Origin: Clostridiales bacterium
GTDB taxonomy: Bacteria; Bacillota; Clostridia; Saccharofermentanales; Saccharofermentanaceae
DNA: 64,000 nucleotides
Direction: 5' to 3'
Assembly (NCBI GenBank): GCA_017509245.1
Contig: JAFWQC010000009.1
Coordinates: forward strand, 18,460-82,459
Below, one piece after another: positions 15,419 to 49,227 of this stretch (within the stretch, counting starts at the first letter, position 1; each line of letters starts with the position of its first letter). A model generated the notes under the pieces. That model did not search any database. It had not been told where the DNA came from and saw only the letters and a program-made list of their open reading frames with translations. The position numbers and the translations under genes were made by a program.

Positions 15419-16129
15419 ATGAAGATCTATATTCCCGAACTGGCATGGTCTCCTTACGGTCTGCTGGTATTATCCTCAGTTGCTATTGGCTTTGCAGCAG
15501 CGGTATATCTCATGAGAAAATCCGGGGTCACAAAGAATACGATACGTTACACATGTCTTCTGACAGCAGTATTCACCGTGACGAATTCGGTAGTGGTAAA
15601 CAGGCTGATGAATGAAGATCCCGGAGCACTCGGATTCTCAGGGCTCGGAGCCGTGGTCGGCATGATCCTTGGAGTGCTTATATCAGGCCTTATCTTCAGG
15701 GACAAACCCGAAAGCGTCATGGCTTCCTTTATTGCAACTGCACCTTTGATGTACGGACTCGCGAAAAGCGGATGCCTTATCGGAGGATGCTGCCACGGGA
15801 AAGAATATGAAGGCCCTTTGGCAATAGTTTATTCAGGTGCAAACGGTGGGTCTTATTTCCCTGCGCAGATCGTCGACATGGCAGTTTTCATAGCGATGTT
15901 TGCGGTAAATCTGATACTCGTCAAAAAGATGAAGAACAAGCTCACAGCGATATATGTGATCCTTGCAGCCTTAACCGTCGTAAGGTTCCTTCTGGAATAC
16001 TTAAAGTACTATCACGACGGCTCTCTGATCGCTTCAGGGCAGGTCAGTGTTCTTATAGCAGGCGCAGCATCTGTCGTGCTTGTTACGGTATGGAAATTCC
16101 TTTTGGGGATCGGGAAAGAACCGGCTTAA
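15419..16129 (+). CDS. Prolipoprotein diacylglyceryl transferase (Lgt)-like membrane protein, divergent
   Basis: YG start motif, AKSGCLIGGCCHG (compare RxGCFxxGCCyG), FPAQ and RFLLEYLK. Confidence 0.75.
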   Translation: MKIYIPELAWSPYGLLVLSSVAIGFAAAVYLMRKSGVTKNTIRYTCLLTAVFTVTNSVVVNRLMNEDPGALGFSGLGAVVGMILGVLISGLIFRDKPESVMASFIATAPLMYGLAKSGCLIGGCCHGKEYEGPLAIVYSGANGGSYFPAQIVDMAVFIAMFAVNLILVKKMKNKLTAIYVILAALTVVRFLLEYLKYYHDGSLIASGQVSVLIAGAASVVLVTVWKFLLGIGKEPA

Positions 16130-16451: not shown

Positions 16452-17042
16452 ATGATTAAGATTGTTGGAATGATGTACGTTACCCTTGTTCCGGTAATAC
16501 TGGCGGGGATAATGGTAATGCTGTGGTGTAAGCTGCCCATATTAAAAGCTTTAGCTAAACCTATTGACTTCGGTAAGAATTTTATAGACGGTAAGAGGCT
16601 CTTCGGTGACAACAAGACATGGAAAGGCCTTTTGGGATACGTTCTTTTTAATCTAATCTTCCAAATCCTCTGGGGACTTGCCTGCAATAATGAGACCTTG
16701 AAAAGTCTGAATTTCTTTTATCAGCACCATGAGAATACGCTGATGTTTAACGTCATTACGGGCATACTGCTGGGCCTCGGGTATGCTCTTTTCGAGCTGC
16801 CGAACAGTTTCCTCAAAAGAAGACTTGATATCACTCCCGGTAAGACAGTAAACGGTTTCTGGAAGGTGTTCTTCGTATTCCTTGATCAGGCTGATTCGAT
16901 ATTCGGAGTTGCACTGGTGGTCTGGTTTTTCTTCCCTCTGGGAATACTCTTATATCTCGCTTATGTGCTCGTGGGGGCATTAACCCACATCATTCTGAAT
17001 ATGCTGCTTTATTTCATGCATCTCAGAAAAAACATGGTTTAA
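16452..17042 (+). CDS. carS: CDP-archaeol synthase (CarS/DUF46)-like cytidylyltransferase
   Basis: PIDFGK..DGKRLFGDNKTWKG, ELPNSFLKRRLDI.PG and LDQADS motifs. Confidence 0.82.
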   Translation: MIKIVGMMYVTLVPVILAGIMVMLWCKLPILKALAKPIDFGKNFIDGKRLFGDNKTWKGLLGYVLFNLIFQILWGLACNNETLKSLNFFYQHHENTLMFNVITGILLGLGYALFELPNSFLKRRLDITPGKTVNGFWKVFFVFLDQADSIFGVALVVWFFFPLGILLYLAYVLVGALTHIILNMLLYFMHLRKNMV

Positions 17043-17051
17043 GGAATAGTT

Positions 17052-19556
17052 ATGTTGATCAGATTAGACAGTAATGAAAAAGACAACGGCAAGTTAGGAA
17101 ACAAGGGCAGATTCCTTCTGCTCATGAAGCAGAACGGCTTTAATGTGCCCGGCGGTTTTGTGCTGGACAGCGGCACATATGATGAGACGGTTGAAGGCGT
17201 GCCGGGAAAGATAATAAGCGAAGCAATATCCAAGCTAAACAAGGATAACGTTGCGGAGACTTCCGCAGGCCTTTATGAACTCTTCGGCAAGATAAGTCTT
17301 CCTTCGAAGGTCAGTGAAGAGATAAAGGCGGCGCTTGATCCGGATAAGCTCTATGCCGTCAGGAGCAGCGGAACCAAGGAGGATCTCGATGAGTTCTCAT
17401 TTGCGGGACAGTATCAGACTTTCCTCAATACAAAGCCTGAGGATGTCGAAGCAAGAGTCATCGACTGCTACAGGTCGATGTTCAGTGAGATCATCTTAAG
17501 CTATCTTGTTAACCGCAATATTGACACGGCTGATCTTAAGATGTCCGTTGTGGTTCAGGAGATGGTCGCTTCCGACAAGAGCGGTATATGCTTTACGATC
17601 GACCCCGTTACGGGCAACGACAAGACGATGCTGATCGAAGTATCGGAGGGTCTTGGCGAGGATATCGTCAGCGGCAAGACCGTGCCGGAGCAGTACCACT
17701 ACAACTGGTTTGATGACAAAGAAGTCGGCAGGGCTCCTGAGAACAGGCTTATCTCTGAAGATAAGGTTATAGAGTATGCGAAGGTTTTCGCGAAAATACA
17801 ACAGCACTTTGGATATCCCTGCGATATCGAGTTTGCGATCAAGGATGATGAACTCTTTATCCTTCAGTCAAGAAGGATCACCAAACTGAATTATTCCGGC
17901 ATCAATGATGTCTGGACGACGGCTGACTTCAAGGATGGCGGTGTGTCCGCAACCGTATGCACGCCTTACATGTGGAGCCTTTATGAATACATCTGGGAGT
18001 ATTCGCTCCGTGTGTTTATCGTTAATTCAAAGATCCTTAAAGATGAGCAGCTTCCCAAAAAGCTCGGTGAGATGTATTACGGCAGATGCTACTGGAATCT
18101 TTCCGCTGTCAAGAAGACGATGGAACAGATCGTGGGATATAAGGAAAGGGAATTCGATAACGAATACGGGATCGTCGGAAATTACGAAGGTGACGGCAAG
18201 GTTACCGGCGCGACTCCAAAGGTGCTCTTACACATGATCCCGATCATAATCGAGCAGACAAAAATCTTAAATGACCGCAAGAAGAATTCCGAGCGTTATA
18301 AGCAGGAACTTTTAGACCTCTATTACGATTACAAGAAGCACCTCGATGAGGGCACGATAGATGATATCACGAGATGCTTTTATAAGATCACTCATGAGAC
18401 ATACTTAAGGTCGGAGACCACCTATTTCCACCAGATATTCATCAATACGATCCACCAGTCGCTCTATAAGGACAGCCTGTTAAAGTATGTGTCTGAGAGT
18501 GAGTATCTCTCGCTCCTTTCAAGCATCGACAACATATCGCATCTTCTCCCGTTCTACGACATGTGGGATATCACGAGAAAGATCAGGGCAAATGAGGATG
18601 ATATGAAGTTCTGGCAGGAGGTTTCCGCGGAAGATATTGCCGGTGATCTTGAAAGTGACAGCCATAATATCCCGCTCGTTAAAAAGCTGATCGATGACTA
18701 TGGTTATCACTCCGACAAGGAACTTGATATCACATATCCGTGCTACTACGAGGAGCCTCAGGTAATGATCTCTATGGTTAAGGACATGATCATGCTGGAC
18801 GATTCCTATTCCCCCGAGAAGGATAAGGAACGCGGCACGGCCGTTTATACGAAGATCCTTGAAGACCTTGGTAAGAACCACTCCGCTTCGGAGGTCAAAA
18901 AGATAAAGGAAAAAGTTGCCAAGATGCGCAAGATGCTCTGGTGGCGTGAAGAATTCCGCGATGTCTCTACAAGGTTCTACTATATGCTACGTATGTATAC
19001 GATCGAGTATGCCAAAAAGCTTGTAAGAGACGGTGTTCTCTCACGCTGGGAGGATGTCTGGTTCTTAAAGGTAGGAAACCTCTGGGACTACATCGAAGGT
19101 AATATCGATGAAGATGATCTTAGTGCCCTGATCGCAAAAAACAAGTTCTACTATAACGCTTACAGGAACTACATCAGTGACAATGAGATCGGCCATGACT
19201 TCAAGGTTATAAATGATACGGAAAGCAAGAATTCCGTAAGAGGCCTTGGAGCAAATAACGGAAAGATCAGGGGTATTGCAAGAGTAATCGAAGACTTCAC
19301 GCAGATAGACAGATTGGAGCAGGGTGATATCCTAGTAACAAGGTTTACCGATACCGGCTGGACTCCGAAGTTCGCTATCCTTTCCGGTATCGTAACCGAG
19401 TACGGCGGTATCTTATGCCATGCGGCGATCGTTTCAAGAGAGTACGGAATTCCTGCGATCGTTTGCTGCAGGGATGCTATGAGCAGGATCCGTGACGGAC
19501 AGATCATAACGATCGACGGAAGCACGGGTGTGGTTACACTGGAGGACGAATCATGA
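17052..19556 (+). CDS. PEP synthase/rifampin phosphotransferase-like dikinase 1
   Basis: ATP-grasp motifs (AVRSSG..ED...SFAGQY, VVVQEM, DIEFA, LQSRRIT), a long helical middle domain and a C-terminal phospho-His domain GGILCHAAIVSRE; no C-terminal pyruvate-binding barrel. Confidence 0.88.
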   Translation: MLIRLDSNEKDNGKLGNKGRFLLLMKQNGFNVPGGFVLDSGTYDETVEGVPGKIISEAISKLNKDNVAETSAGLYELFGKISLPSKVSEEIKAALDPDKLYAVRSSGTKEDLDEFSFAGQYQTFLNTKPEDVEARVIDCYRSMFSEIILSYLVNRNIDTADLKMSVVVQEMVASDKSGICFTIDPVTGNDKTMLIEVSEGLGEDIVSGKTVPEQYHYNWFDDKEVGRAPENRLISEDKVIEYAKVFAKIQQHFGYPCDIEFAIKDDELFILQSRRITKLNYSGINDVWTTADFKDGGVSATVCTPYMWSLYEYIWEYSLRVFIVNSKILKDEQLPKKLGEMYYGRCYWNLSAVKKTMEQIVGYKEREFDNEYGIVGNYEGDGKVTGATPKVLLHMIPIIIEQTKILNDRKKNSERYKQELLDLYYDYKKHLDEGTIDDITRCFYKITHETYLRSETTYFHQIFINTIHQSLYKDSLLKYVSESEYLSLLSSIDNISHLLPFYDMWDITRKIRANEDDMKFWQEVSAEDIAGDLESDSHNIPLVKKLIDDYGYHSDKELDITYPCYYEEPQVMISMVKDMIMLDDSYSPEKDKERGTAVYTKILEDLGKNHSASEVKKIKEKVAKMRKMLWWREEFRDVSTRFYYMLRMYTIEYAKKLVRDGVLSRWEDVWFLKVGNLWDYIEGNIDEDDLSALIAKNKFYYNAYRNYISDNEIGHDFKVINDTESKNSVRGLGANNGKIRGIARVIEDFTQIDRLEQGDILVTRFTDTGWTPKFAILSGIVTEYGGILCHAAIVSREYGIPAIVCCRDAMSRIRDGQIITIDGSTGVVTLEDES

Positions 19557-20164
19557 TCGTAGGCAAGTGGAACAAATCGGTGATCCTGACTTATGCGGGC
19601 ATGCTTTTCGCGGTGCTTGGCATGGTCCTCGCATTCACATGCGGAAAGATCAATTACGCAATGTGCTGTCTTATGGTCGCGGGAGTCTGTGATCTTTTCG
19701 ACGGCATGGTCGCAAGACGCTGCAAGCGTACTGAAGAAGAGAAGAAGTTCGGAATAGAACTCGATTCGATCGTCGACACATTGAGTTTTGTTGCCCTTCC
19801 TGTATGTATCTTCATTTCAATGGGACTAACGAAGGTATGGGATATCGTGATATTCATGTTTTTCGCGCTGGCAGGCGTAGCAAGACTTGCATATTTCAAT
19901 ATCTATACCGCTGACAGCGAGAAGGCGGTCAAGCACTATACCGGCCTGCCCGTTACTTATGCGGCTTTGATATTCCCTCTTGTATATCTTTTGTTCCTGC
20001 CTTTTGAAGGAGATGTATTCATGTGGATATACAGAGCGGCTATAGTTCTTATCTCCGTTTTTGAGATCCTTAAGATAAAAGTTCCGAAGCCTACAGGCTT
20101 CTGGTACATAATATTCGGATTGGCGGCAATTGCTTTATTAGTTGTTTATCTTGCAGTTATCTGA
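19553..20164 (+). CDS. pssA: CDP-alcohol phosphatidyltransferase (phosphatidylserine synthase-like)
   Basis: DLFDGMVAR...FGIELDSIVD signature; RLAYFN and YTGLP motifs. Confidence 0.85.
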   Translation: MIVGKWNKSVILTYAGMLFAVLGMVLAFTCGKINYAMCCLMVAGVCDLFDGMVARRCKRTEEEKKFGIELDSIVDTLSFVALPVCIFISMGLTKVWDIVIFMFFALAGVARLAYFNIYTADSEKAVKHYTGLPVTYAALIFPLVYLLFLPFEGDVFMWIYRAAIVLISVFEILKIKVPKPTGFWYIIFGLAAIALLVVYLAVI

Positions 20165-20170
20165 AAGCCT

Positions 20171-21025
20171 ATGAAGATCTACGACCGACAGACTGAATCT
20201 TACGAAGAGATAGAGCAGTTCGGAGCAGGGAAACTGAATTTCCTTTACAACAATCCGTTCGGCCGTCTGTTCCTGGGAATCGCCGTGTCGTCCTTCGTGT
20301 CAGATATCTATTCAAAAAAGAAATCGAAAAAGAGCTCTTGCAAAGATATCCCGGAATTCATCAGAAATCACAATATTGACATGGGTGATTACGAAGATAA
20401 GGAATATGAGTCTTTCACCGATTTTTTCACAAGAAAGATCAAGCCCGGCAAACGCCCTGTGGATATGGATCCAAAAGCTTTTATCTCACCGTGCGATTCA
20501 AAGCTCCTTGTCTATAAGATCGATTCCAATACCGGAATGAATATAAAGGGACGTGAATATACAGTCGATGAGATCCTTGGCGGAACAGGCGATGCGCAGG
20601 AGTTTAAAGACGGAATAGCAATGGTGTTCAGGCTTACGGTTGACGACTATCACAGATATTGTTTCCCGGACAGCGGAAGCGTCATATGCAGGAAGAGCAT
20701 AAAGGGCAAGCTCCATACGGTCAGCCCGGTTTCAAAAGACCATAAGATCTACCACGAGAACACAAGGGATGTCAGCATCCTGAAGACTGATAATTTCGGC
20801 ACCATGGCATATATCGAAGTCGGTGCGATGCTCGTCGGAAGGATCGTGGACGAAGGGATCGGTATTTTCGCGAAAGGCCAGGAAAAAGGACATTTTGAAC
20901 CCGGCGGATCGACAGTAATAATACTCGCGAATAACATAAAGATAGACGAAGATATAATGGAACAAAGCGTCTCAGGGATAGAGACAAAAGTCAGATACGG
21001 AGAGAGGATAGGTACGGCATTATGA
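20171..21025 (+). CDS. psd: Phosphatidylserine decarboxylase
   Basis: FTDFFTRK, SPCDS, DYHRY and EVGAMLVG motifs; GGST self-cleavage site. Confidence 0.92.
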   Translation: MKIYDRQTESYEEIEQFGAGKLNFLYNNPFGRLFLGIAVSSFVSDIYSKKKSKKSSCKDIPEFIRNHNIDMGDYEDKEYESFTDFFTRKIKPGKRPVDMDPKAFISPCDSKLLVYKIDSNTGMNIKGREYTVDEILGGTGDAQEFKDGIAMVFRLTVDDYHRYCFPDSGSVICRKSIKGKLHTVSPVSKDHKIYHENTRDVSILKTDNFGTMAYIEVGAMLVGRIVDEGIGIFAKGQEKGHFEPGGSTVIILANNIKIDEDIMEQSVSGIETKVRYGERIGTAL

Positions 21026-21930
21026 TCAAAAGGCTCCACATCTATTTCAAAGAACGTTATCCGATCATTCCGAGGATAATCCTGGGCATCATCCTTTTCC
21101 TGGAGATCCATTTCATAATCCTTTTGAACATGGGTGTCACATGGAAAGAGGTCCATCTCGGTCCCGCCGAAGCAACAGGCGCTTTCACGTGCTTTGCTTT
21201 TCTTTTGTGGCTCAGGATCGCTGACGACTTAAAGGACTTCGAGACTGATAAGAAACTCTTCCCCGACAGGCCCCTGCCGAGCGGAAGAGTATTCAAGAAG
21301 GACGTAATGGTCGCATGCGTAATAGTTCAGGTTATAGCAATTGCCCTGAATGTCTTATTCATGCGCGAAAACCTGATCTTCCTCGTTATCCTCTACATCT
21401 ACGGATATCTGATGAGCAAGTGGTTCTTCAAGAAAAAGAAGATCCAGCCGAGCCTTCCTCTGGCGCTCATCACGCACAATCCCGTCCAGGCATTCATAAA
21501 CCTTTACATCATCGCCTTCACCATTCAGAAATACCAGCTTCCGTTCTTCTCGCTGACCAACATAATGGCACTGTGGACGCTTTATTTCCCTGCGCTTATC
21601 TGGGAGGTATCAAGAAAGATCAGGGCGCCAAAAGACGAGACGGAATATACGACATATTCGAAGCTCTTCGGTTACAAGGATTCAACCAAGTTCGTATTGA
21701 TACTGACGATCCTGGACATCATCACGAACTTCATCCTCGTATGGAATCTCAACAAGATATCCGTAGGCGTTCTCTTCCTGCTCGTATCCTGGATGACATG
21801 GAAGTTTATCCAGTTCATTAAGAACCCCGAGAGGTTCGTCCTGGTAGAGAAAGTCGAGCTCTACACTTATCTGCAGGAATCGACGATGCTCTTAACCATT
21901 GTCTGCTTCATAATCTTCGGAAAGATCTGA
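21022..21930 (+). CDS. UbiA-family prenyltransferase
   Basis: Multi-TM protein with the first Asp-rich motif RIADDLKDFETD...DRPLPSG. Confidence 0.8.
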   Translation: MIKRLHIYFKERYPIIPRIILGIILFLEIHFIILLNMGVTWKEVHLGPAEATGAFTCFAFLLWLRIADDLKDFETDKKLFPDRPLPSGRVFKKDVMVACVIVQVIAIALNVLFMRENLIFLVILYIYGYLMSKWFFKKKKIQPSLPLALITHNPVQAFINLYIIAFTIQKYQLPFFSLTNIMALWTLYFPALIWEVSRKIRAPKDETEYTTYSKLFGYKDSTKFVLILTILDIITNFILVWNLNKISVGVLFLLVSWMTWKFIQFIKNPERFVLVEKVELYTYLQESTMLLTIVCFIIFGKI

Positions 21931-21931
21931 T

Positions 21932-24205
21932 ATGTACGGCTCTAAGATTGACAATCTCATAAAGCTAAGTGACAGCGGATTTAATGTTCCGGCATTTACC
22001 ATTGTGCCTTATGAGGATGCTGTCAGGGAAGACCTTGAGGTAAAGCTGCCTTCATCAGGAAAACTCTTTTCAGTCAGAAGTTCTGCCAATGTCGAGGACG
22101 GTGAATTCCAGAGCTTTGCAGGGCAGTTCGATACTTTCCTTAATGTATCGCGCGATGATGTCGCTTCGAAAATAAAGACGATAGTAAATTCCCTTAACAG
22201 CGACAGCGTTAAGGCATATGCAGAGTCTAAAAAAATCGATGTTTCCGACATCAGGATGAACATTATCGTGCAGGACATGATAGATTCCGAAGTATCCGGC
22301 GTCCTCTTTACAGCTAACCCTCAAGGCATCTTGAATGAGAGCGTTATAACTGTCGGAAGAGGTCTTGGTGAAGGCATCGTCTCATCCAGAGTTGATACGA
22401 CATCTTACTACTACAACCTTACTGATAAGATCTGTTATTTCGAAGGCAAGGAAGACCTGATATCACAGGACAGGATCGAAGAGCTTATCGGTATCTCAGA
22501 TAAGATGAAGCCCCTCTTTGGTGAGTATCTTGATATCGAATTTGCAATCAGGGACGATGAGGTATTTATCCTTCAGGTGCGCCCGATAACTACACTTAAG
22601 ACTGACGATCCGCTCATTATGGATAACAGCAATATCGTTGAGAGTTATCCGGGAATCTCTTCGCCTCTTACGACGTCATTTGTGGATCTCGTTTACAGCG
22701 GAGTCTTCAAAGGCGTGTGCGGAAGAGTCCTTAAGAACGATAGGGAACTAAACAAGCACGAGGACGTTTTCCTCAACATGACAGGTCACGTAAACGGCCG
22801 TGTTTACTATAAGATCAGCAACTGGTATACGGTTATAAAGTTCCTGCCGATGAGCAAGAAGATCATCCCCGTATGGCAGGAGATGATGGGCGTGCGCAAC
22901 AAAACATATAACGAAGACGATGTTAAGATCGGTTTCTTCACGCGCATCGCTACGTATTTTAATTCCGTTTATGAGCTTTGCGCCGTTCCGAAGAACATGC
23001 GAAAACTCAACGAGAAATTCATCGTAATCAATGACGATTTCTACAGTAAGTTCGATACTTCTTTGTCGCCTGCAGAGCTAGTCGCGCTGTTTAATGACGT
23101 TAAGGTCAAGCTTTTCGACTGCTGGGACGTAACGCTTCTAAACGACATGTATTCATTTATCTTCACGGGTCTTCTCAAGTCCCGCATGAAGAAGAAATAC
23201 GGTAAGGACGACAAGGAGATCAATGAGTACATAAGCGGCATCTCCGACATCGAGAGCATGAAGCCTGTCATCGAGATCACAAGGCTTGCGCTTGAGAAAG
23301 ATAATATGACCGAAGAAGAGTTTGCAGCCGCAAAGAGAGAATACATAAGGCTTTACGGCGACCGCAATCTCGAGGAATTAAAGCTAGAGAGCAGGACGTT
23401 CAGGAGCAATCCCGAGCTTCTCGACTGGCGCATTAACCAGTACAGGAAAGACATGGAGCGCCTTAAGGCAACATGGGACAGCTTCACTAGAAAAAAGAAT
23501 ACTGAAGATAAGTACGACGCGCTGACCCGGTTCTACGTTAAGAAGAGTTCTCTCGGTATCTATAACCGTGAGATCTCAAGGCTTAACAGAAGCCGAATCT
23601 ACGGCGTCGTAAGACTTATCGTAGACGCTCTTGGCGCGAAATATAAAGAGCAGGGCCTTATCGAGAAAGCACACGATATCTACTACATGAAGGTCGACGA
23701 GGCATTAGGCCTTGCAAGCGATCCTAAGGATATGAGAAAGACCGTAAGTGACCGCAAGGACCAGTATAAGCTCTACAGGGAGCTTCCGCCTTATTCGAGG
23801 CTCATCTTTGCTGAAGGACCTTTCAACAAGCGACACGCAAATGTTAATTCTTACCACAAGAAACTCAAGGATAACGAGCTCTTCGGAGTGCCCTGTTCAG
23901 GCGGCATATGCGAGGGTGAAGCACTTGTAATTACTGACGTAAACGACACGGGCGATGTGAAGGATAAGATCCTCATCACGAAGATGACAGATCCCGGCTG
24001 GGTGTTCCTTCTGACACAGGCAAAGGGCGTTATCTCTGAGAAGGGTTCGCTTTTATCTCACACGGCGATCGTCTCAAGAGAGATAGGCATACCTTCGATA
24101 GTCGGTGTCAAAGACCTGATGGATACGATCCGGACGGGCGACCTTATCAGGATGAACGGCGATAAGGGAAAGATCGAGATATTGAAAAGGAGCGGCGATA
24201 CATGA
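21932..24205 (+). CDS. PEP synthase/rifampin phosphotransferase-like dikinase 2
   Basis: SVRSSANVED...SFAGQF, LQVRPIT, TDPGW and GSLLSHTAIVSRE motifs. Confidence 0.88.
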   Translation: MYGSKIDNLIKLSDSGFNVPAFTIVPYEDAVREDLEVKLPSSGKLFSVRSSANVEDGEFQSFAGQFDTFLNVSRDDVASKIKTIVNSLNSDSVKAYAESKKIDVSDIRMNIIVQDMIDSEVSGVLFTANPQGILNESVITVGRGLGEGIVSSRVDTTSYYYNLTDKICYFEGKEDLISQDRIEELIGISDKMKPLFGEYLDIEFAIRDDEVFILQVRPITTLKTDDPLIMDNSNIVESYPGISSPLTTSFVDLVYSGVFKGVCGRVLKNDRELNKHEDVFLNMTGHVNGRVYYKISNWYTVIKFLPMSKKIIPVWQEMMGVRNKTYNEDDVKIGFFTRIATYFNSVYELCAVPKNMRKLNEKFIVINDDFYSKFDTSLSPAELVALFNDVKVKLFDCWDVTLLNDMYSFIFTGLLKSRMKKKYGKDDKEINEYISGISDIESMKPVIEITRLALEKDNMTEEEFAAAKREYIRLYGDRNLEELKLESRTFRSNPELLDWRINQYRKDMERLKATWDSFTRKKNTEDKYDALTRFYVKKSSLGIYNREISRLNRSRIYGVVRLIVDALGAKYKEQGLIEKAHDIYYMKVDEALGLASDPKDMRKTVSDRKDQYKLYRELPPYSRLIFAEGPFNKRHANVNSYHKKLKDNELFGVPCSGGICEGEALVITDVNDTGDVKDKILITKMTDPGWVFLLTQAKGVISEKGSLLSHTAIVSREIGIPSIVGVKDLMDTIRTGDLIRMNGDKGKIEILKRSGDT

Positions 24206-25272
24206 AGTTAGTCAAGTTTGATCTGGAAGAGAATTACATAAAGGATTTTGTAAAGCTCGCAGAGAAGATCTACGATACTTCCGACAACATGGAAGATCCT
24301 GATTCGATAAAGAAGATACTCAAAGGAGGGCATCCTTTAAGCAAGTATTTCACGCTTGCAAAGTTCCTTGTATACGATGACAGCGGTATTGCCAAAGGCC
24401 GTTTCTGCATCACTTCATATGAGGGCGATGAGACAGCATATCTCGGCTTTTTCGAATGCGTAAATGATGCAGAAGTTGCAAAGTTCCTATTCGACAGCGC
24501 ATATTCATATTGCAGCGAAAATGGTTTTGCGAAGATCCAGGGCCCGGTCGATGCTTCCTTCTGGATCAAGTACAGACTTAAGATCAACAAGTTCGATGCT
24601 CCTTATACGGGTGAACCTTACAACAAAGATTACTACTTGAAGCTCTTCGAAGACAACGGTTTTATTGTCGCCGAGCACTACACATCACATGCCTTCAGAA
24701 GCGTCGGCGAGGAGTATAAGAATCCGAAGTTTGAAGAGCATTACCAGGAATTCCTTAACGCCGGCTATGAGATCAGGAGTCCAAAGGAAGAAGAGTTTTC
24801 GCAGGCGATAGATGACGTCTACAGACTCGTAACTGACCTTTACAGCGACTTCCCGATCTTCAAGGACGTTAAGCAGGAGGACTTCAGGGAAGTCTTCATG
24901 AGCTATAAGCAGATAATGAACATGAGCATGACCAAGCTCGCTTACTATAACGGCAAGGCTGTCGGCTTCTATGTCTCGATCCCTGATTACGGCAATCTTG
25001 TTTACCATACGGGCAATCCTGTTAACATCGCGAAGATCCTCATGACGAAGAAAAAGCCGAAGCGCTATGTAATGCTCTACATGGGTGTTGACCAGCAGCA
25101 CAGGGGTTTGGGAAAAGCGCTCGTTTACGCGATCATGAAGGAACTTATGGCATCAGGGCTCCCGAGCATCGGCGCGCTCATGAGGGACGGCAAATTAACA
25201 CAGACATATGCGAATGGTGACATCACCGGCGTTTACGAATATGTACTTTTGGAAAGGACGATAGAGAGATGA
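24202..25272 (+). CDS. GNAT-fold protein
   Basis: LGFFEC, GP, PYN..YY and MGVDQQHRGLGKAL acyl-CoA-binding-like motifs. Confidence 0.7.
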   Translation: MKLVKFDLEENYIKDFVKLAEKIYDTSDNMEDPDSIKKILKGGHPLSKYFTLAKFLVYDDSGIAKGRFCITSYEGDETAYLGFFECVNDAEVAKFLFDSAYSYCSENGFAKIQGPVDASFWIKYRLKINKFDAPYTGEPYNKDYYLKLFEDNGFIVAEHYTSHAFRSVGEEYKNPKFEEHYQEFLNAGYEIRSPKEEEFSQAIDDVYRLVTDLYSDFPIFKDVKQEDFREVFMSYKQIMNMSMTKLAYYNGKAVGFYVSIPDYGNLVYHTGNPVNIAKILMTKKKPKRYVMLYMGVDQQHRGLGKALVYAIMKELMASGLPSIGALMRDGKLTQTYANGDITGVYEYVLLERTIER

Positions 25273-26726
25273 ATGAACTTGAGAAGTTTTTAAGAGCGGA
25301 CTATGAGAAGTGGAAGGACAACGATTACCTCCACGAGATGGTCGACGGCAAGTATGTAGGTATTACGATGGGCGAATTCATCGAGAAGGTGAATTACCTC
25401 GGAACCTATCTTGTTAATAACGGCTATAAGGGCAAGAATATCGGTATCTACAGCCCGAACTCGATCGCTTGGATGATCGCAGATGTTGCGATCATGAACT
25501 ATGTCGGATTAAGCGTCGGTCTTAACAAGGACTGGAAGGACGATAATCTCGATTATGCTATCGGCAAATGCGAGATCGCTCTGATGCTTTACAGCAAGGG
25601 ATTAGAAGACAAGATCAACGCCGTTAAGGATAAGTATCCGTCAGTTGAATTCGTGTGCATCGAAGAGAATTTCGACAGGATGATCGATGAGGGTAAAGCA
25701 GCATGCAAAGAGCTTTTCGCGCTCGAACCGGTTGATGAGGACAAGCCCGCGAAGATCGTATTTACGAGCGGCTCCACATCTTTCCCGAAGGCCGTAATGC
25801 TGTCAGTCAAAAATATCTATTCAAGCTATGAAGCACTGGGCAGAAGGATCAGTGTCGATACAAATGACGTCTGCTACCTGTTCCTGCCTTTGAATCATAC
25901 TTACGGTTCCATCTTCAATTTCCTGTATTCATTGGTGTTCGGTTACAGCATCTATCTAACGGGAGACATTAAGAACATGGCTCAGGAGATGATGACGGTA
26001 AAGCCTACTGTCTTCTGCGCGGTGCCTCTTGTCTGCGTCAAATTCTGCGAGGGCGCAAAGGCAATGAATGTGCCTTTGAAGATGCTCCTTGGCGGCAGGA
26101 TGAGATATCTTTTCATCGGAGGTTCATGTCTGCCTTATGATATCCGTCAGGCCTTTATCGATCAGGGTATCAACCCGATGAATGCATATGCGCTTTCTGA
26201 GACATCTTCGGGCTTCTCGATCGACTATCCTGACGTTACCGACATGGACAGTGCAGGCACGCTTCTGGAATATGTTGATGCTAAGGTCATAGATCCTGAT
26301 GAGGACGGCATCGGCGAGCTTGCGATCAAGGGACCGAATATTTTCCACGGTTATCTGAACGATCCTGAAGCAACTAAGAGAGCCTTCGACAAGGACGGAT
26401 ATTTCCTTACGGGCGACCTTGGAAAGATCGTCGGCAACATGGTCTATGTCAAGGGAAGAAAGGACACGATGCTCGTTCTTTTGAACGGCGAAAATGTTTC
26501 CTCCAAGCGCATCTGCGAGAAGGTAAAAGCTGCTGATCCGAGGATCTCATCGGTTAAGGCTTATATCAGGGATGACTTGCTCACATGCGATATTTTCGTG
26601 AACGGAAAAGAAAATGTCGAAGGCGACTGGCAGGCCGTCATCGATAAAGTCAATGAAGATCTCTCAAAGTATGAGAAAATAAGAAAGTTCAGTGTCGTTG
26701 ATTCAAGCGCGCTTCTAAAAGGATAA
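25269..26726 (+). CDS. AMP-binding enzyme (long-chain acyl-CoA synthetase-like)
   Basis: FTSGSTSFPK, YALSET, YFLTGDLG and GRKD motifs. Confidence 0.9.
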   Translation: MNELEKFLRADYEKWKDNDYLHEMVDGKYVGITMGEFIEKVNYLGTYLVNNGYKGKNIGIYSPNSIAWMIADVAIMNYVGLSVGLNKDWKDDNLDYAIGKCEIALMLYSKGLEDKINAVKDKYPSVEFVCIEENFDRMIDEGKAACKELFALEPVDEDKPAKIVFTSGSTSFPKAVMLSVKNIYSSYEALGRRISVDTNDVCYLFLPLNHTYGSIFNFLYSLVFGYSIYLTGDIKNMAQEMMTVKPTVFCAVPLVCVKFCEGAKAMNVPLKMLLGGRMRYLFIGGSCLPYDIRQAFIDQGINPMNAYALSETSSGFSIDYPDVTDMDSAGTLLEYVDAKVIDPDEDGIGELAIKGPNIFHGYLNDPEATKRAFDKDGYFLTGDLGKIVGNMVYVKGRKDTMLVLLNGENVSSKRICEKVKAADPRISSVKAYIRDDLLTCDIFVNGKENVEGDWQAVIDKVNEDLSKYEKIRKFSVVDSSALLKG

Positions 26727-30869: not shown

Positions 30870-31631
30870 ATGAAAAAGCGCAATAACCCGTCAAAGGAAG
30901 AGAAAGAATTCCTGGAGCAATATGACGTTACTAAATTCGAGCGTCCTTCCGTTACGGCAGATATCGTTATCTTCACATTGGACGATGCTGATGAGCTGAA
31001 CATCCTTCTTATCAAGCGCGGAGGATTCCCTTATAAGGACTGCTGGGCAATCCCCGGCGGATTCCTCGAAGCGGGTAAGGAATCGATCGATGAAGCTGCA
31101 GCAAGGGAACTCAGGACTGAGACCAACATTGATGACGTATATCTCAAGCAGCTCTATACATTCGGCGATCTTGGAAGAGATCCCAGAACCACAGTCATAT
31201 CTGTTGCATATACAGCACTTGTACCAAAGCACAAACTTGATATAAAAGCCGGTGATGACGCCAAGGAAGCAAAACTCTTCGCTATTAAATATGACGTTAA
31301 CGGCATCATCTTCACAAACGGGAATACGGTAATTACCGAAAGTGATCTTGCGTTCGATCACGCCGAGATCATCAAGATGGCCATCACCAGATTAAGGAAT
31401 AGGATAGATTACGAAGATGATGCCTTTAACCTCCTTAAAAACAAAGAGAAATTCACTATCTCAGAACTCAAGAGGATCCACGAGACTATAAAGAACAGGA
31501 CTCTGGATCTTCCGAATTTCCGGAAGACCTTCTTGAGAGATTATGTCTCAACAGGCAAAGTGATCGACCTGAACAAGACTGAATCATCGAAGGGAAAACC
31601 GGCGCGGCTTTACAAGTATCTTGAGAGGTAA
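30870..31631 (+). CDS. nrtR: NrtR-type Nudix-family transcriptional regulator
   Basis: PSVTADIVIF, WAIPGGF, Nudix box AAARELRTET, RDPR, LAFDHAEII and a C-terminal wHTH ending GKPARLY. Confidence 0.88.
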   Translation: MKKRNNPSKEEKEFLEQYDVTKFERPSVTADIVIFTLDDADELNILLIKRGGFPYKDCWAIPGGFLEAGKESIDEAAARELRTETNIDDVYLKQLYTFGDLGRDPRTTVISVAYTALVPKHKLDIKAGDDAKEAKLFAIKYDVNGIIFTNGNTVITESDLAFDHAEIIKMAITRLRNRIDYEDDAFNLLKNKEKFTISELKRIHETIKNRTLDLPNFRKTFLRDYVSTGKVIDLNKTESSKGKPARLYKYLER

Positions 31632-31635
31632 GGAT

Positions 31636-32637
31636 ATGAGGCGCATCGTGACAGGGATCCTGATACTGGCACTGTTGCTGCCGTTGTCAGGCTGCCTGAA
31701 CCAAGAGAAGGATATAGATATTGACAGAGAGCATTTTCCGGATGAAGTGTTATGGGAAGCAGCAAGGAAAAAGGATCTTGATCACAACACAAAACTGAGC
31801 AGCGATGAGATAGAGAGCGCAACTAAGATCTATCTTGACGGAGTGCAGGATCTTACGGGATTAGAAGTATTTACAAGCCTTGACAGCATTAGTTTAAGAA
31901 ATGGGAAAAATATGAAATATGACTTTAAATGCTTTACCAATCTCAGGTCAATAGCCATCGACGGAACCTGGGCATCAGACCGCATAGATCTGAGCGGAAA
32001 TACAAACCTGCAATGGATCAAGATCAAATGCAAAAACCTTGAAGAATTGATCCTGCCGGAGGATGCTCCTCTTAAGGAATTAACATGCATCAAGTCACAG
32101 TTGACGGATATGGATCTTAACAACTATAAAAGCCTTAAGATCATCCACATTGAGAGCAATAATTCCATTACAGAACTGGAATTCAGCGGTTTGCCGGAAC
32201 TGACAGAACTTAACTGCAGTGACAATAAGCTCCTGAACAAGATAACCATAAGGGATTGCCCCAATCTGAAAAAACTGGAGTGCTCATTCAATAATCTTAC
32301 TGAACTGAATATCTCCGGATGCGAAGAACTGGAGGAGCTCAAGTGCATCTCGAATAATCTGTGCAAACTTGATGTAAGCGCTTACAAGAATCTGAAGTCA
32401 TTGGAATGTGATACTAATAACCTGACAGAATTAGATGTTACAGGGTGCCCTAATCTCGGCTGGCTTCTTTGTGAGGATAACGGACTGTCATCTTTGGATA
32501 TCAGAAACTGCCCTAAACTTACGGAACTGATGCAAAATGTTGAAGCGGAAGAACGTGCTAGCGGATGCATAGTTTACCGGGACAGGGATATTCGCATGCT
32601 GCGCTTTGATACTGACGTCAGATTAATAACGGACTGA
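31636..32637 (+). CDS. Leucine-rich-repeat lipoprotein
   Basis: Lipobox LSGC; repeated LxxLxCxxNxLxxLD units. Confidence 0.85.
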   Translation: MRRIVTGILILALLLPLSGCLNQEKDIDIDREHFPDEVLWEAARKKDLDHNTKLSSDEIESATKIYLDGVQDLTGLEVFTSLDSISLRNGKNMKYDFKCFTNLRSIAIDGTWASDRIDLSGNTNLQWIKIKCKNLEELILPEDAPLKELTCIKSQLTDMDLNNYKSLKIIHIESNNSITELEFSGLPELTELNCSDNKLLNKITIRDCPNLKKLECSFNNLTELNISGCEELEELKCISNNLCKLDVSAYKNLKSLECDTNNLTELDVTGCPNLGWLLCEDNGLSSLDIRNCPKLTELMQNVEAEERASGCIVYRDRDIRMLRFDTDVRLITD

Positions 32638-32675
32638 CAGGTGATATAAGCCTCAAAAACAGTTATTATACTCGT

Positions 32676-32855
32676 ATGGAAAACGAACACGGATTTATCA
32701 TTCCCGGCAATATAAAAAGCCTCATATCCGGCAGGGAATACACTACTGACGATACCGGCATGTCCGGTTCCTGCATCATGATCTTTGACGCGCTGGGCAT
32801 AGAACCTGACCGGGATAAGATAGATTATTTCATCCTGCTGGATGAACTGTTTTGA
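32676..32855 (+). pseudogene. Internally deleted aminoglycoside 3'-phosphotransferase (APH(3')-like) remnant, 59 aa
   Basis: The N-terminus (...DDTGMSGS) is joined in frame to the C-terminal FDALGIEPDRDKIDYFILLDELF, which matches the APH(3')-III C-terminus; the catalytic core is absent. Confidence 0.75.
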
Positions 32856-32892
32856 ATCCGGGTTAATAAGTTAACGAGAGTGGGAATTGCAG

Positions 32893-33429
32893 ATGCTTTT
32901 TTGGAATAAAACTATACCTCAATTGAATATCGATCAACGCGAGTATAAACCATTCATCAAAAATGATTGGTTTAGAAAGCATTACATGTGGTTTGCATAC
33001 GGCCTCATGATTCTTATTTACCTCACTGCTTTCTTTACGGGCGGTTTCCGGGCAGGGAACATAATAATTAGAATACTGGTCTTTCTTGCTGTTTATCCGG
33101 TTCATGAATTGCTTCATATCGTTACCGTTTGCAGAAAAGGAGATATCTATCTCAGTCATTCCGGGATTTATTTCTGGCTTACACCCGATATCGAATTGAG
33201 CAAGGGAAGGTTCTGGATCTTCATTACTTTGCCGCTCATTATACTTACGGGATTTACCGGTGCCGGTGCTGTTTTCGCTTCAGGCGCGCTAAGAGAATAT
33301 CTCGCTTATATAGCATGGATCAATGCGTTCATTGCAGGATCTGACATCATCAATTCATTTCTTATTCTAATCAAGCCTTCCGGTTCTTCGTTCTACAGAG
33401 GATATTACAGGTTAAAGGAAACCGGATGA
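32893..33429 (+). CDS. DUF3267-like membrane protein (HExxH, putative zincin)
   Basis: VHELLH, P-containing TM segment and N...GSD motif. Confidence 0.65.
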   Translation: MLFWNKTIPQLNIDQREYKPFIKNDWFRKHYMWFAYGLMILIYLTAFFTGGFRAGNIIIRILVFLAVYPVHELLHIVTVCRKGDIYLSHSGIYFWLTPDIELSKGRFWIFITLPLIILTGFTGAGAVFASGALREYLAYIAWINAFIAGSDIINSFLILIKPSGSSFYRGYYRLKETG

Positions 33430-33457
33430 AAACATTAAGCGTTGCGAGGGAAGAATA

Positions 33458-34246
33458 ATGTACGGAGCAGTTTTCGGAGACATAATAGGTTCGTCTTACG
33501 AGTGGCACAATGTCAGAACGGAAGATTTTGAACTGTTTCCAAAAGGCGCGCATTTTACTGACGATACGGTGCTCACTGTGGCTGTTGCCGACAGCATTCT
33601 TAACATGGACGGGACAGTGCCGCGCAAGTGTTATGCGCAGCATATAAAGACTTATTATTCGCGTTATCCGCACGCAGGGTTTGGCCAGATGTTCATTAAC
33701 TGGGCGGAGTCGGATTCTCTTTATGTTCAGAAGAGCTACGGCAACGGTGCTTCAATGCGCGTTTCCGCGATCGGCTGGGCATTTGAAGATGAGGACACGA
33801 TAAGAAAACAGGTCAGCGAGAGCTGCTATTATACCCACCATAACCGTGAAGCAGTAAGTTGCGCGCAGGCTGTTGCGCTGGCAGTATTCTATGCCAGGAA
33901 AGGCGTGGATAAGAATGAGATACGCCGCCGTCTGGAAGAAGAATTCAAGCTCTATTTTGTTCCGATCGCCGATGTGCGGGACGGATATCAGTTTGACTCA
34001 AGATCAATCAATTCGGTGCCGCATGCCATAGAGGCATTTTTCGAGACGGACGATTACGAATCGTGCATAAGAAGAGCAATATCCTTGGGCGGTGACAGTG
34101 ATACGATCGCTGCGATCGCCGGCGGTATTGCTGAAGCATATTACGGTGAGATCCCGGCCCATATCGTGAGCAAAGGCAAACTCATCCTGGACAGCGGACT
34201 GAAGCGTGTTTTGAATCAGTTTGAGGAAAGATACGGCAGTAGATAA
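33458..34246 (+). CDS. ADP-ribosylglycohydrolase family protein
   Basis: GDIIGS, FTDDT, SYGNGASMR and GGDSDTIAAIAG motifs. Confidence 0.92.
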   Translation: MYGAVFGDIIGSSYEWHNVRTEDFELFPKGAHFTDDTVLTVAVADSILNMDGTVPRKCYAQHIKTYYSRYPHAGFGQMFINWAESDSLYVQKSYGNGASMRVSAIGWAFEDEDTIRKQVSESCYYTHHNREAVSCAQAVALAVFYARKGVDKNEIRRRLEEEFKLYFVPIADVRDGYQFDSRSINSVPHAIEAFFETDDYESCIRRAISLGGDSDTIAAIAGGIAEAYYGEIPAHIVSKGKLILDSGLKRVLNQFEERYGSR

Positions 34247-43663: not shown

Positions 43664-43701
43664 AGAAACGGAGTGGTGAGTTCTCACTGCTCCGTTTTCT
43701 T
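43664..43701. terminator. Bidirectional terminator-like hairpin
   Basis: AAACGGAG(T)GGTGAG...CTCACTGCTCCGTTT between convergent genes. Confidence 0.65.
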
Positions 43702-45141
43702 TTGCATTTTCACACAATCGAAATTACCGCTCTTTACCACATCGTCATCTGTGTGCTGATAGCCGAGCTTCTCATAGAAATCTATTGCTTCCAGCCTGCT
43801 GTCTATCAGGATGTTGCCGTAACCCAGCTCTTTTATCCATTTCTCGGCTTCGGTGACGACGCGGCTGCCGAGTCCCTTGCCGCGGTACTCAGGAAGGACC
43901 ACGACACGGCCTAAAGTCACGCTGTCTTTATCTGTTTCGTAGAAGCGGCATGTCGCAACGGGATAACCGTCATCAAGTATGACGATATATTTTGTTCCGT
44001 CGCAGTCATGCTCATCGAATTCCTCTCTGAGCGTTATGTGATGCTGACGGTTCATTCCCTCGATACGCACCGAGTACGCACCGGCTCTCTGCCATTCGTG
44101 TTCTGCTCTTAATACTCCCATGCGTGAATTAATTGTTCTTTCCACCGATTTTTCTTCTGACTGGCCCGTATAAACTTCAAGTGCCTGTGAGTAGTAATTC
44201 CTGAGTCTTGATCTGAGTTTTCCGGGCTTCAATACGACAGCATCTTTTCCGAATCTTCGAAAATAATCATCAAGCTGAACCTCCGGCCAATCGAAGACAT
44301 AGACATCACCGTCTATCTTCGTAACCTGCGGTCTGTTCTTGACTATCAGCCTGTATTTCCTTTTTCCTGCCTCGTTAAGACGTATGAGAGCATGGATGTC
44401 AGGGGCAGCGGTGTGAGGACTTCTTGCAGCTATCGCACGGAGCCTCTCATAGAACTTCCCGTCAGTCTTAAAAGTGTCTGAAGTTACAAAAGGAGTCCTT
44501 ATTCTTGAGATCCTGAATGTTCTTGATTTTTTAGTCTTAACATCGCGGCACAGGAGATAGTTGCACTGCTCTTCCTTGGAAGGTGCGATTATGTAAGGTT
44601 CGACCGTGAAGTTGAATTCGTTGCTCGTGGATGAGAGCGACAGACGTTTATGTTCTGCTATGGCTCTTCTGATATCCGCGTAGACATCCTTGAAGATGAT
44701 CTCTTCGCGCCTGCTTCTGGGAATTGAGAGATAAGACGTGAACATATCCTTCATGTAGCCGGACAAAGACTTATCCTGAAGAAGGTTATTCTCTATGGTC
44801 TTTATGATGTTGTAAGAAGGACCGCTTACGGTAAGTGTTATAACGGCTTTGCCTCCTGTAGAAGATGATTCACCCCTTATGTAAGTGCTGATTATCTTAT
44901 CTGCGAGGGCAGCGGCATCCTTGCGCTTAATGGATCTGACGGATGCTATATCGTCAATGATTCCGCTTAAGAGTTCTTCCGAGTCCTTTCTGTACTGATC
45001 GAAGTAGTTTACGATAAGTTCCTTTAAGAAACCGTTGAGGTTTACGGAAGCATCACTCCTTGTGAATTCAAAGAGTTCTGCATCGTTTATAAGCCTTGTT
45101 CTTATGTCCTCTGAAAGGTAGATCTTATATTTCTCAGTCAT
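43684..45141 (-). CDS. WYL-domain (plus WCX-like) transcriptional regulator fused to a C-terminal GNAT domain
   Basis: RAI...VEPYII...NYLLC...RTFRISRI (WYL); FGKDAVVLKP (WCX-like); GRVVVLPEYRGKGLG...FYEKLGY (GNAT). Confidence 0.82.
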   Translation of the reverse strand: MTEKYKIYLSEDIRTRLINDAELFEFTRSDASVNLNGFLKELIVNYFDQYRKDSEELLSGIIDDIASVRSIKRKDAAALADKIISTYIRGESSSTGGKAVITLTVSGPSYNIIKTIENNLLQDKSLSGYMKDMFTSYLSIPRSRREEIIFKDVYADIRRAIAEHKRLSLSSTSNEFNFTVEPYIIAPSKEEQCNYLLCRDVKTKKSRTFRISRIRTPFVTSDTFKTDGKFYERLRAIAARSPHTAAPDIHALIRLNEAGKRKYRLIVKNRPQVTKIDGDVYVFDWPEVQLDDYFRRFGKDAVVLKPGKLRSRLRNYYSQALEVYTGQSEEKSVERTINSRMGVLRAEHEWQRAGAYSVRIEGMNRQHHITLREEFDEHDCDGTKYIVILDDGYPVATCRFYETDKDSVTLGRVVVLPEYRGKGLGSRVVTEAEKWIKELGYGNILIDSRLEAIDFYEKLGYQHTDDDVVKSGNFDCVKMQKKTEQ

Positions 45142-45265
45142 TAGATAACTCCTGTTTGGGGTCGTGATTTTCGATGAATATAACGTAATTATACAATAAA
45201 TCCTGATAAAAGTGGGGTTATAAATTGAAATGATTCTGCATCTTTAAGAACCCAACCGGCAGGGC

Positions 45266-45271
45266 TATCAT
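45266..45271 (+). promoter_or_regulatory. Putative -10 element for the ncRNA-DUF2828-rtcB transcript
   Basis: TATCAT 17 nt upstream of element 1; only a weak -35 (TTTAAG). Confidence 0.4.
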
Positions 45272-45287
45272 AAGGCTGTAACGTGAT

Positions 45288-45368
45288 AAGACACTTACAG
45301 CAAATATTCAGGCGGTCTCTGCGGGGGTTCGAATCCCCCCTTTGAAAGAACCCTTCGGGGAGTGTCTT
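45288..45368 (+). ncRNA. Candidate Y-RNA-like/tRNA-mimic RNA 1
   Basis: 8-bp terminal stem AAGACACT/AGTGTCTT, TACAGCAA motif, T-arm GGGGG-TTCGAAT-CCCCC and CCC-TTCG-GGG tetraloop hairpin. Confidence 0.65.
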
Positions 45369-45388
45369 GGAAATATGTTACGGAAATA

Positions 45389-45450
45389 AAGGTGCATACA
45401 GCAAGTAGCCTCGTTCAGTAATCCCCGGGGTGGAGCCCGGGGGGCACCTT
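45389..45450 (+). ncRNA. Candidate Y-RNA-like RNA 2
   Basis: 7-bp terminal stem AAGGTGC/GCACCTT, the same TACAGCAA motif, and an internal CCCCGGG-GTGGAG-CCCGGGG hairpin. Confidence 0.6.
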
Positions 45451-45471
45451 GTAAAAAAGGAGATAATGAAA

Positions 45472-46932: not shown

Positions 46933-46995
46933 GAAATCCAGGTCCCCGGTGCAATATAATCAAAGCCGGGGACTTTTTTAAGAAAGGAAAAGACT

Positions 46996-49048: not shown

Positions 49049-49227
49049 ACGGATAAGGGAGACAACGCATGGAATTGTTAAAAGGAAGCATTTGATCAGG
49101 CTTTTTCGTGTCCCGGCACTTTTTTAGACAAAATTCTAAAATATGTGAGTAAACCCGGATTTTAGTGCAATAAAATAATGTGCAGAAGGAAGTTGGATAA
49201 TAATTGCTTTTTCCCGAGGGGCTTATT

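Follow-up and report, generated by a model that had tools for sequence, protein, structure and literature searches.

The window analysed here is a 64-kb stretch of DNA (contig JAFWQC010000009.1, positions 18,460 to 82,459) from a Clostridiales bacterium of the family Saccharofermentanaceae. At 16452–26726 it carries an operon of eight open reading frames (ORFs) on one strand, which encodes a real and conserved lipid pathway that is not of the archaeal type and is apparently undescribed. Coordinates are positions in the whole window; lengths are in amino acids (aa), and RPH stands for rifampin phosphotransferase. The genes are, in order:

16452..17042, + strand: CarS-like CTP transferase, 196 aa (PF01864, 71 bits), predicted to CDP-activate a non-standard phosphatidic-acid analogue
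17052..19556, + strand: dikinase 1, 834 aa, RPH architecture with His790, predicted as the likely kinase of the free hydroxyl of a finished two-chain lipid
19553..20164, + strand: PssA-type CDP-alcohol phosphotransferase, 203 aa (PF01066)
20171..21025, + strand: phosphatidylserine-decarboxylase-type enzyme (Psd), 284 aa (PF02666, 171 bits; GGSTV at 245)
21022..21930, + strand: UbiA-fold membrane transferase, 302 aa (PF01040), divergent and PRK13592-like, the core enzyme
21932..24205, + strand: dikinase 2, 757 aa, RPH architecture with His710, predicted to activate the UbiA substrate by phosphorylation
24202..25272, + strand: tandem GNAT, 356 aa, of the YghO/bacterial ceramide synthase group, predicted long-chain N-acyltransferase
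25269..26726, + strand: acyl-adenylating ligase, 485 aa (PF00501, 180 bits), predicted to activate a fatty acid for the GNAT

Successive genes are separated by 9, −4, 6, −4, 1, −4 and −4 bases, the four negative values being ATGA overlaps, and in positions and gaps this arrangement is what a first-pass annotation, made from the letters of the window, had described. Its family labels for all eight genes were likewise confirmed by Pfam and NCBIfam scans, which returned, in operon order, CarS-like, dikinase, PssA-type, Psd, UbiA, dikinase, weak GNAT and AMP ligase matches, with PPDK_N and PEP-utilizers domains in two proteins (dikinases 1 and 2). Catalytic-type motifs are intact, including the swivel histidines His790 and His710 and the GGST of Psd, and a comparison with the related locus L005 revealed an excess of third-position changes in all eight genes. 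The GC content of the operon (0.458) equals that of the genome (0.462). A promoter scan of the operon found 13 sites against 17 expected, and a site scan detected no terminator-like site 3′ of the last gene. In each of four RNA-library runs, contigs fall in 17 to 25 of 30 bins, and some of them span gene borders; such contigs do not prove transcription, strand or a single transcript. As the first-pass annotation also stated, no gene for a polyprenyl synthase, a geranylgeranylglyceryl phosphate synthase (GGGPS) or a glycerol-1-phosphate dehydrogenase (G1PDH) was seen among the listed window ORFs (domain scans covered 31 of the 45 that lie outside the operon, plus three more).

Conservation and distribution of the operon

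A search with the UbiA-like protein gave 248 relatives, the best 80 of which were kept as the Clostridia set of loci. After removal of 23 loci with less than 5 kb upstream or less than 6.5 kb downstream, 57 well-covered loci were left. UbiA and dikinase 2 are present in all of these, the GNAT in 56, carS in 53, psd in 46, the ligase in 45, pssA in 40 and dikinase 1 in 35, and the full set of eight genes is found in 24 of the 57. The gene set is thus conserved. Its spread is patchy: the operon occurs in 46 of 143 genomes of the family, in 43 of 99 congeners and in 5 of 399 genomes of a class-wide sample (profile search; two genomes unscored), and in a sample of the phylum its own genome was the sole carrier among 401. 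Among the best 80 of the 248 relatives, the closest loci (UbiA identity up to 97%) are titled Clostridiales, Ruminococcaceae or Saccharofermentans and belong mostly to rumen or gut genomes. A complete eight-gene operon (L026) was also seen on a contig titled Candidatus Saccharibacteria. Upstream of the operon in the window lies a divergent Lgt-family gene (15419–16129). Just one of the 80 related loci has it next to the operon, and it is therefore left out of the gene set.

Kinases, transferases and the acylating pair

The CarS-like protein exceeds the cut-off of PF01864 (71 versus 22 bits) and scores 74 bits against the archaeal equivalog, the cut-off of which is 148. ApCarS (5guf; E 3e-6) is its only related PDB match, and the nearest Atlas clusters are bacterial. 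The motifs ELPNSFxKRR and DQxDS are kept in 61 aligned homologs, with S119, K122, R123, D145 and D148 conserved, which we take to be residues of the CTP/metal site. The PssA-type enzyme scores 74 bits with the pssA model and as much with that of archaetidylserine synthase, in each case below cut-off, and the residues of the DxxDGxxAR motif are kept in an alignment of homologs.

Both dikinases share with RPH (PDB 5fbs/5hv1) and with PigC/RedH-type enzymes the three-domain layout of ATP-grasp, middle and swivel-His domains as well as the SFAGQ, DIEF, RE and His motifs. However, they stay far under the cut-off of the RPH equivalog (325 and 208.5 versus 999 bits) and form two distinct clades tied to lipid genes; against PRK06241.2-3, dikinase 2 reaches 804 bits (cut-off 850). 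A tree of 65 dikinases places 15 sequences of the dikinase 1 type in a single clade (support 1.0) that is separate from the UbiA-adjacent type, and the middle-domain signatures of the two types differ. Dikinase 2 is a near-constant partner of UbiA, being found in 57 of 57 Clostridia loci and in 34 of 38 longer distant loci (see below). Dikinase 1 has a different association. In 22 of the 80 loci a PF01219 (DgkA) gene directly precedes carS, and the 65 loci with 5 kb upstream comprise 42 with dikinase 1 and carS, 19 with DgkA and carS, four with neither kinase and no carS, and none with both kinases; the genomes of the four kinase-less, carS-less loci, of unstated completeness, gave no match to PF01864. 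Because dikinase 1 never co-occurs with DgkA and both accompany CarS, it is probably a lipid kinase that makes the CarS substrate and so feeds CarS, PssA and Psd; it may instead act as an alcohol kinase. The loci in which dikinase 1 and DgkA are exchanged are kin, so that the pattern may reflect one swap and one loss. The dikinases of RPH architecture are likely to be lipid-pathway kinases, as the first-pass annotation had proposed. Its further claim that both of them feed the UbiA-like enzyme fits dikinase 2, which tracks UbiA, but not dikinase 1, which represents a separate clade, swaps with DgkA and tracks CarS. A third dikinase of RPH architecture (776 aa; G000:C110, L222:4541–6868) is encoded in the same genome, with no lipid genes seen beside it.

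The best NCBIfam match of the UbiA-like protein is PRK13592 (391 bits, cut-off 443), and the model of digeranylgeranylglyceryl phosphate synthase (DGGGPS), NF009522, gives 28.6 bits against a cut-off of 353. Near-invariant residues of the family (at least 121 of 123 aligned homologs) are R65, D68, K71, D72, D76, R83, H152, E195, R198, K199, E206, T211 and Y212. Asp motif 1 of MjDGGGPS (D66, D70) is retained as D72 and D76, invariant in 123 of 123 sequences. In contrast, Y125/K130 of motif 2 align with M131/F136, and motif 3 (D180, D183, D187) corresponds, aligned by eye, to K199, A202 and E206, the second Asp motif of the UbiA-like protein being replaced by WExxRK..E..YxTYS. Passages of PMC9385802 describe the motif 3 aspartates of DGGGPS as required for activity, and UbiA members as normally moving a prenyl group. 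The structure model (pLDDT 97) has the ether-forming MjDGGGPS as its best Foldseek match (TM 0.64–0.66, 16% identity); in VIA-align, DGGGPS (6m31; Z 18.6, rmsd 3.8, 268 aligned) ties with the UbiA of A. pernix (4od4; Z 18.5, rmsd 3.1, 258 aligned). The protein has the UbiA fold, but its active site is rebuilt and more basic, and by no curated score is it a DGGGPS. Its subfamily comprises 548 representative proteins at E 1e-10 or better.

Several fusions involve this family. At L006:9441–12479 an in-frame deletion joins the UbiA-like gene and dikinase 2 in one frame of 1012 aa, at the cost of the first 34 residues of dikinase 2 including the conserved Lys5; this is either a real fusion or an assembly error. 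No longer fused forms of UbiA were found among 7995 candidates of 596–2000 aa (UbiA profile), which is weak evidence. In the wider family, three proteins (P0230, P0244 and P0267) have a phytol-kinase-like (kinase-like membrane) domain fused to UbiA, and other fusions (L112:5044–6786; L098:6327–8861) include one of AMP ligase with UbiA.

The Pfam match of the operon GNAT is weak (21.5 bits). A profile of 29 operon GNATs aligns end to end with E. coli YghO (probability 99.9, 352 columns, 18% identity), and the model fold is a tandem GNAT that matches other tandem GNATs; the profile gave no match among PDB sequences. In the pertinent parts of the respective papers, yghO is listed as the acyl-CoA N-acyltransferase gene for dihydroceramide (PMC9386255), and bacterial ceramide synthase (bCerS) is described to acylate 3-ketosphinganine (PMC11087976). 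The operon GNATs branch away from YghO and from the Spt-linked GNAT of Streptomyces in an unrooted tree. Of the plasmid homologs, one is located between Spt-like and epimerase genes in Streptomyces, and one in Ensifer has a different gene context. Neither Spt nor CerR was matched by tblastn (one query each) in the own genome or in 202 loci. The ligase has a long-chain-fatty-acid–CoA ligase as its best NCBIfam match, below cut-off, and its Lys484 is kept across 53 aligned homologs. A YghO-like GNAT next to an acyl-adenylating ligase upholds the earlier prediction that these two enzymes add an acyl chain.

Exchangeable modules and genome context

More distant copies were collected with a motif scan, which gave 120 of about 220 metagenome stretches; flanks were taken for 80. 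Together with two plasmid loci, 36 metagenome loci make up a set of 38 longer distant loci (at least 5 kb). A Brevibacillus locus from the plasmid collection encodes an HMG-CoA-reductase-like protein, UbiA, dikinase, DUF3419, a membrane protein, GNAT, ligase and P450, and a Roseinatronobacter locus has a similar layout. Within the set of 38, dikinase 2 is present in 34 loci and the GNAT in 23. An FcrA-type reductase adjoins the core in nine loci, a TamH-like enzyme in nine and a FAR-type reductase in two, never two of them together. The head-group genes vary as well: DUF3419, which we take to be BtaA-like, occurs in 13 loci, CarS in 10 and CdsA in two, the BtaA-like gene never with CarS or CdsA and in four loci together with Psd. 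The second kinase is of the dikinase 1 type in eight loci, phytol-kinase-like in seven and DAGK_cat in two; the phytol/dolichol-kinase-like label is our assumption from remembered motifs, Pfam having given no match.

The FcrA signature was examined in 12 distinct HMGR-like neighbours, which have Glu at the Ser684 site (11/11), a non-Lys residue in place of the HMG-binding Lys (12/12) and Phe or Tyr at the Leu862 site (11/11), and the catalytic residues are kept in the FcrA-type neighbours. For this comparison, Lys795 of the FcrA paper was presumed to be human Lys735. According to parts of that paper, FcrA reduces fatty acyl-CoA to the alcohol and is defined by three pocket changes (PMC11948995). 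The TamH-like neighbours, of about 970 aa, combine an N-terminal class III transaminase with a C-terminal domain that carries the ACMxE Cys motif in 11 of 11 proteins; a strict pattern recognised the pyridoxal-phosphate-binding Lys motif in six of 11. TamH itself is described, in a section of PMC9594044, as turning an acyl chain into a fatty amine. Closely related cores pair with different reductases, and in the GNAT tree the TamH-like and FAR cores are sister groups (L116/L121 with L136, support 0.99), which suits a chain used as nucleophile. Three unrelated acyl reductases alternating beside the core point to straight-chain alcohols or amines, not prenyls, and acting as a nucleophile would be the simplest role shared by an alcohol and an amine chain. 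A polyprenyl synthase query matched one of the 80 Clostridia-set loci and none of 122 others. The earlier idea of a scavenged lipid alcohol stands in part: a long-chain alcohol, possibly scavenged in this organism, is supported, but its prenyl identity is not, since distant copies adjoin fatty-acyl reductases.

Four distant loci (L092, L109, L129 and L164) have carS, UbiA, dikinase, in some cases P450, GNAT and TamH-like genes beside a LolA-like protein and an ABC exporter, a neighbourhood that suggests lipid export to the outer membrane. An FcrA-type reductase is fused to an APH-like kinase at L169:9073–11826. Two kilobases beyond the Brevibacillus cluster, an ORF (L085:6483–7436) presumably resembles a pore-forming insecticidal toxin.

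The own genome (79% complete) contains cdsA, one FPP-synthase-like gene, FabF and a PlsA-like frame of 1484 aa, and at this completeness PcrB, HMGR/FcrA, Spt, CerR, FAR, DgkA, DUF3419 and PlsY were not found in it. PcrB/GGGPS exceeded the cut-off neither there nor in any of 29 near-complete carriers (five short matches were below it), and HMGR/FcrA was likewise absent from all 29. Seven PF13685 matches in the own genome, ORFs of the iron-dependent alcohol dehydrogenase family, resolve to alcohol dehydrogenases and AroB. PF07993 was matched in 10 of the 29 carriers, mostly weakly (43–63 bits), with one match of 112 bits in a frame of 1995 aa. No pssA or psd besides those of the operon was found in the own genome. 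Psd occurs in all 10 carriers tested and in 5 of the 20 non-carriers tested; in these five, and as a second copy in the carrier G485, which holds the operon psd besides, it belongs to a lone pssA-psd pair. In all six regions read, such ordinary pairs of congeners have neither carS nor dikinase 1 beside them. PlsY (PF02660) was found in five of 143 family genomes (four of 85 near-complete ones), and the four congeners with PlsY all carry the operon. Loss of PlsY was rejected as the reason for the operon, PlsY being missing in 138 of 143 family genomes, carriers or not, and so was fatty-acid auxotrophy, as FabF-type genes are present in 128 of 143. Elsewhere in the window are an NrtR regulator with an ADP-ribosylglycohydrolase (30870–34243), an RNA-repair-type cluster in which a DUF2828/DUF7788 gene and rtcB lie divergent to a WYL-GNAT regulator (43687–48207), a tandem array of four FecR-domain membrane proteins ahead of a CHASE2 adenylate/guanylate cyclase (49204–57226), and a DDE transposase with DUF772 in a lower-GC stretch (60040–61704).

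A possible ceramide-like product and its rivals

From the gene content, families, motifs and gene replacements described above, we infer every substrate and product of the following scheme. As the best explanation we tentatively propose, well short of considering it probable, that the operon makes a ceramide-like membrane lipid: an amide-containing, two-tailed molecule in which a long-chain alcohol forms one tail, an amide-linked fatty acid the other, and phosphoethanolamine the head group. Dikinase 2 would activate a small amino-hydroxy unit by phosphorylation, with serine or N-acyl-serine as the best guess, and the UbiA-fold enzyme would let a long-chain alcohol (an amine in TamH-like versions) displace the phosphate. 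The ligase and the YghO-like GNAT would then attach the N-acyl tail; the seryl ester or amide would resemble 3-ketosphinganine, the substrate of bCerS. Dikinase 1, or DgkA in other copies, would phosphorylate the free hydroxyl, and the CarS-like enzyme, PssA and Psd would add CDP, then serine, and finally decarboxylate. The alcohol would come from outside in this organism, for example from plant wax alcohols or phytol, or from a further enzyme. With slightly greater reserve we extend this proposal to the family: the UbiA-fold enzyme and dikinase 2 might be a new bond-forming pair that couples a polar unit, activated by phosphate, with a straight-chain alcohol or amine and, together with the ceramide-synthase-like GNAT, yields Spt-independent ceramide mimics or ethers in many bacteria, the modules for reductase, kinase and head group being exchangeable.

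The ceramide-like reading accounts for the exchange of alcohol and amine, for a bCerS-like GNAT without Spt, for the lost second Asp motif and for the tie between the second kinase and CarS. With the bacterial sphingolipid pathway (Spt, bCerS/YghO, CerR, AasR) the operon shares a full-length YghO-like GNAT, an acyl-adenylating ligase and a second kinase from families that hold diacylglycerol or ceramide kinases; unlike that pathway, it lacks Spt and CerR in loci and genome, and the backbone would have to come from the UbiA-like enzyme and dikinase 2. Several points weigh against this reading. We know of no precedent for acyl transfer by a UbiA-fold enzyme or for an RPH-type enzyme forming an acyl phosphate, and no serine-handling gene marks the core. 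The swap of dikinase 1 and DgkA and the four minimal loci were seen in related organisms, so that each may go back to a single event; prenols, too, are phosphorylated by DgkA and by the phytol-kinase-like family, and the kinase domain fused to UbiA in three proteins fits a route via alkyl diphosphates equally. The own genome has no obvious gene for making the alcohol, FcrA being lacking there and in 29 of 29 carriers, and the operon pssA and psd, as the only copies in the genome, may also make ordinary phosphatidylethanolamine (PE). Finally, the GNAT is missing in 15 of 38 distant loci, many of which are truncated, yet L135 and L144 are long and have none.

A route to ether lipids is the strongest competitor, although we regard it as rather unlikely. 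Here a first kinase and dikinase 2 would make a fatty-alcohol mono- and diphosphate, a glycerol unit would receive the alkyl group from the UbiA-like enzyme and an O-acyl chain from the GNAT, and CarS, PssA and Psd would complete an alkyl-acyl PE. Alkyl transfer from a diphosphate is the default of UbiA, Asp motif 1 (D72, D76) is kept and the best Foldseek match forms ethers; the first kinase could be dikinase 1, DgkA or the phytol-kinase-like enzyme, kinase-UbiA fusions and the FcrA-kinase fusion of L169 exist, a second kinase is also found in BtaA-like versions, and some FcrA are suggested, in a passage of PMC11948995, to supply ether lipids. However, it is established chemistry that saturated primary alkyl diphosphates do not ionise like allylic ones, UbiA motifs 2 and 3 are replaced, amine-forming TamH-like enzymes fill the same slot, the GNAT is from an N-acylating group, and four related loci lack the second kinase and CarS alike. 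In the version of the first-pass annotation, phytol, geranylgeraniol or farnesol would be scavenged, phosphorylated twice and transferred by the UbiA-like enzyme to give a prenyl-ether/acyl hybrid PE. Allylic donors suit UbiA chemistry, a reductase gene is lacking in the gut versions (0 of 80 loci), so that an alcohol from outside is needed, the closest loci are from rumen or gut by title, and archaeal CarS is described in part of PMC9385802 as favouring isoprenoid lipids; nevertheless, homologous cores elsewhere are paired with fatty-acyl reductases, polyprenyl synthase is nearly absent (1/80 and 0/122 loci) and CdsA replaces CarS in two distant loci, which makes prenols an unlikely substrate.

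Slightly more doubtful still is that the kinase, CDP transferase, PssA and Psd merely recycle lipid into ordinary diacyl PE, while the core of UbiA, dikinase 2, GNAT and ligase makes an unrelated lipid or metabolite in the style of PigC/TamQ. The single pssA and psd copies would suit this, TamH-like and PigC-like enzymes recall tambjamine synthesis, and some distant loci show no head-group gene. Yet head-group genes of varied families (CarS, CdsA, BtaA-like, Psd, PEMT) recur by the core, the genome has a separate cdsA, and the ordinary pssA-psd pairs of congeners do without carS or dikinase 1. The archaeal prenyl-ether framing of the first-pass annotation, finally, is not supported, and a true diether (archaetidylethanolamine) pathway is highly improbable. 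The operon does resemble that pathway in combining a CarS-family CTP transferase, a CDP-alcohol transferase, a decarboxylase and a UbiA-fold enzyme that retains Asp motif 1, and ApCarS and MjDGGGPS are the nearest solved relatives by sequence. Among the matches of the seven alcohol-dehydrogenase-family ORFs of the 79%-complete genome there is no G1PDH model. The operon differs from the archaeal pathway in the absence of GGGPS above cut-off from the own and 29 carrier genomes, in the replaced motifs 2 and 3, in sub-cut-off scores for UbiA (28.6 versus 353 bits) and CarS (74 versus 148), in a fold that ties with a non-DGGGPS UbiA, and in the added RPH-type dikinases, GNAT and ligase; moreover, homologous loci adjoin fatty-acyl reductases, not polyprenyl synthases. 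The combination of GGGPS and DGGGPS without CarS in FCB bacteria, as outlined in PMC7852524, is a different case.

A search of the open full-text literature, with subscription papers and supplements outside its scope, found no description of the cluster, and the annotation's view of a conserved operon for an undescribed aminophospholipid has held up. PMC10128005, PMC12973609 and PMC12419801 proved to deal with other subjects. Distant copies carry FcrA-signature or TA-TR reductases like those of the FcrA (PMC11948995) and TamH (PMC9594044) studies, which are found in neither window nor own genome; the covered parts of both papers do not mention the cluster, and those of the FcrA paper have no match for UbiA. 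Bacterial ether routes are given as ElbD, AGPS, PlsAR and Ger in a 2026 preprint, the covered text of which has no matches for UbiA and FcrA (10.64898/2026.06.23.733905). These routes, like the proposed one, would use a reduced fatty chain, but a Pfam scan revealed no domain shared with the eight operon proteins.

For many bacterial ether and amide lipids the biosynthesis is still an open question, and the routes via AGPS, ElbD, PlsAR, Ger and Spt/bCerS do not include the present gene set. The operon is compact, expressible and has cultured carriers, among them Ruminococcaceae bacterium YRB3002 (locus L022) and Roseinatronobacter sp. S2 (locus L089), and it offers testable roles for two large groups of dikinases now labelled as PEP synthase. 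On the strength of gene context, it also predicts new chemistry for a UbiA subfamily. If the proposal for the whole family is true, a class of membrane lipid new to science and a reaction new to the UbiA superfamily would be at hand, and a ceramide-like lipid in gut Clostridia could bear on host signalling and on rumen lipid turnover.

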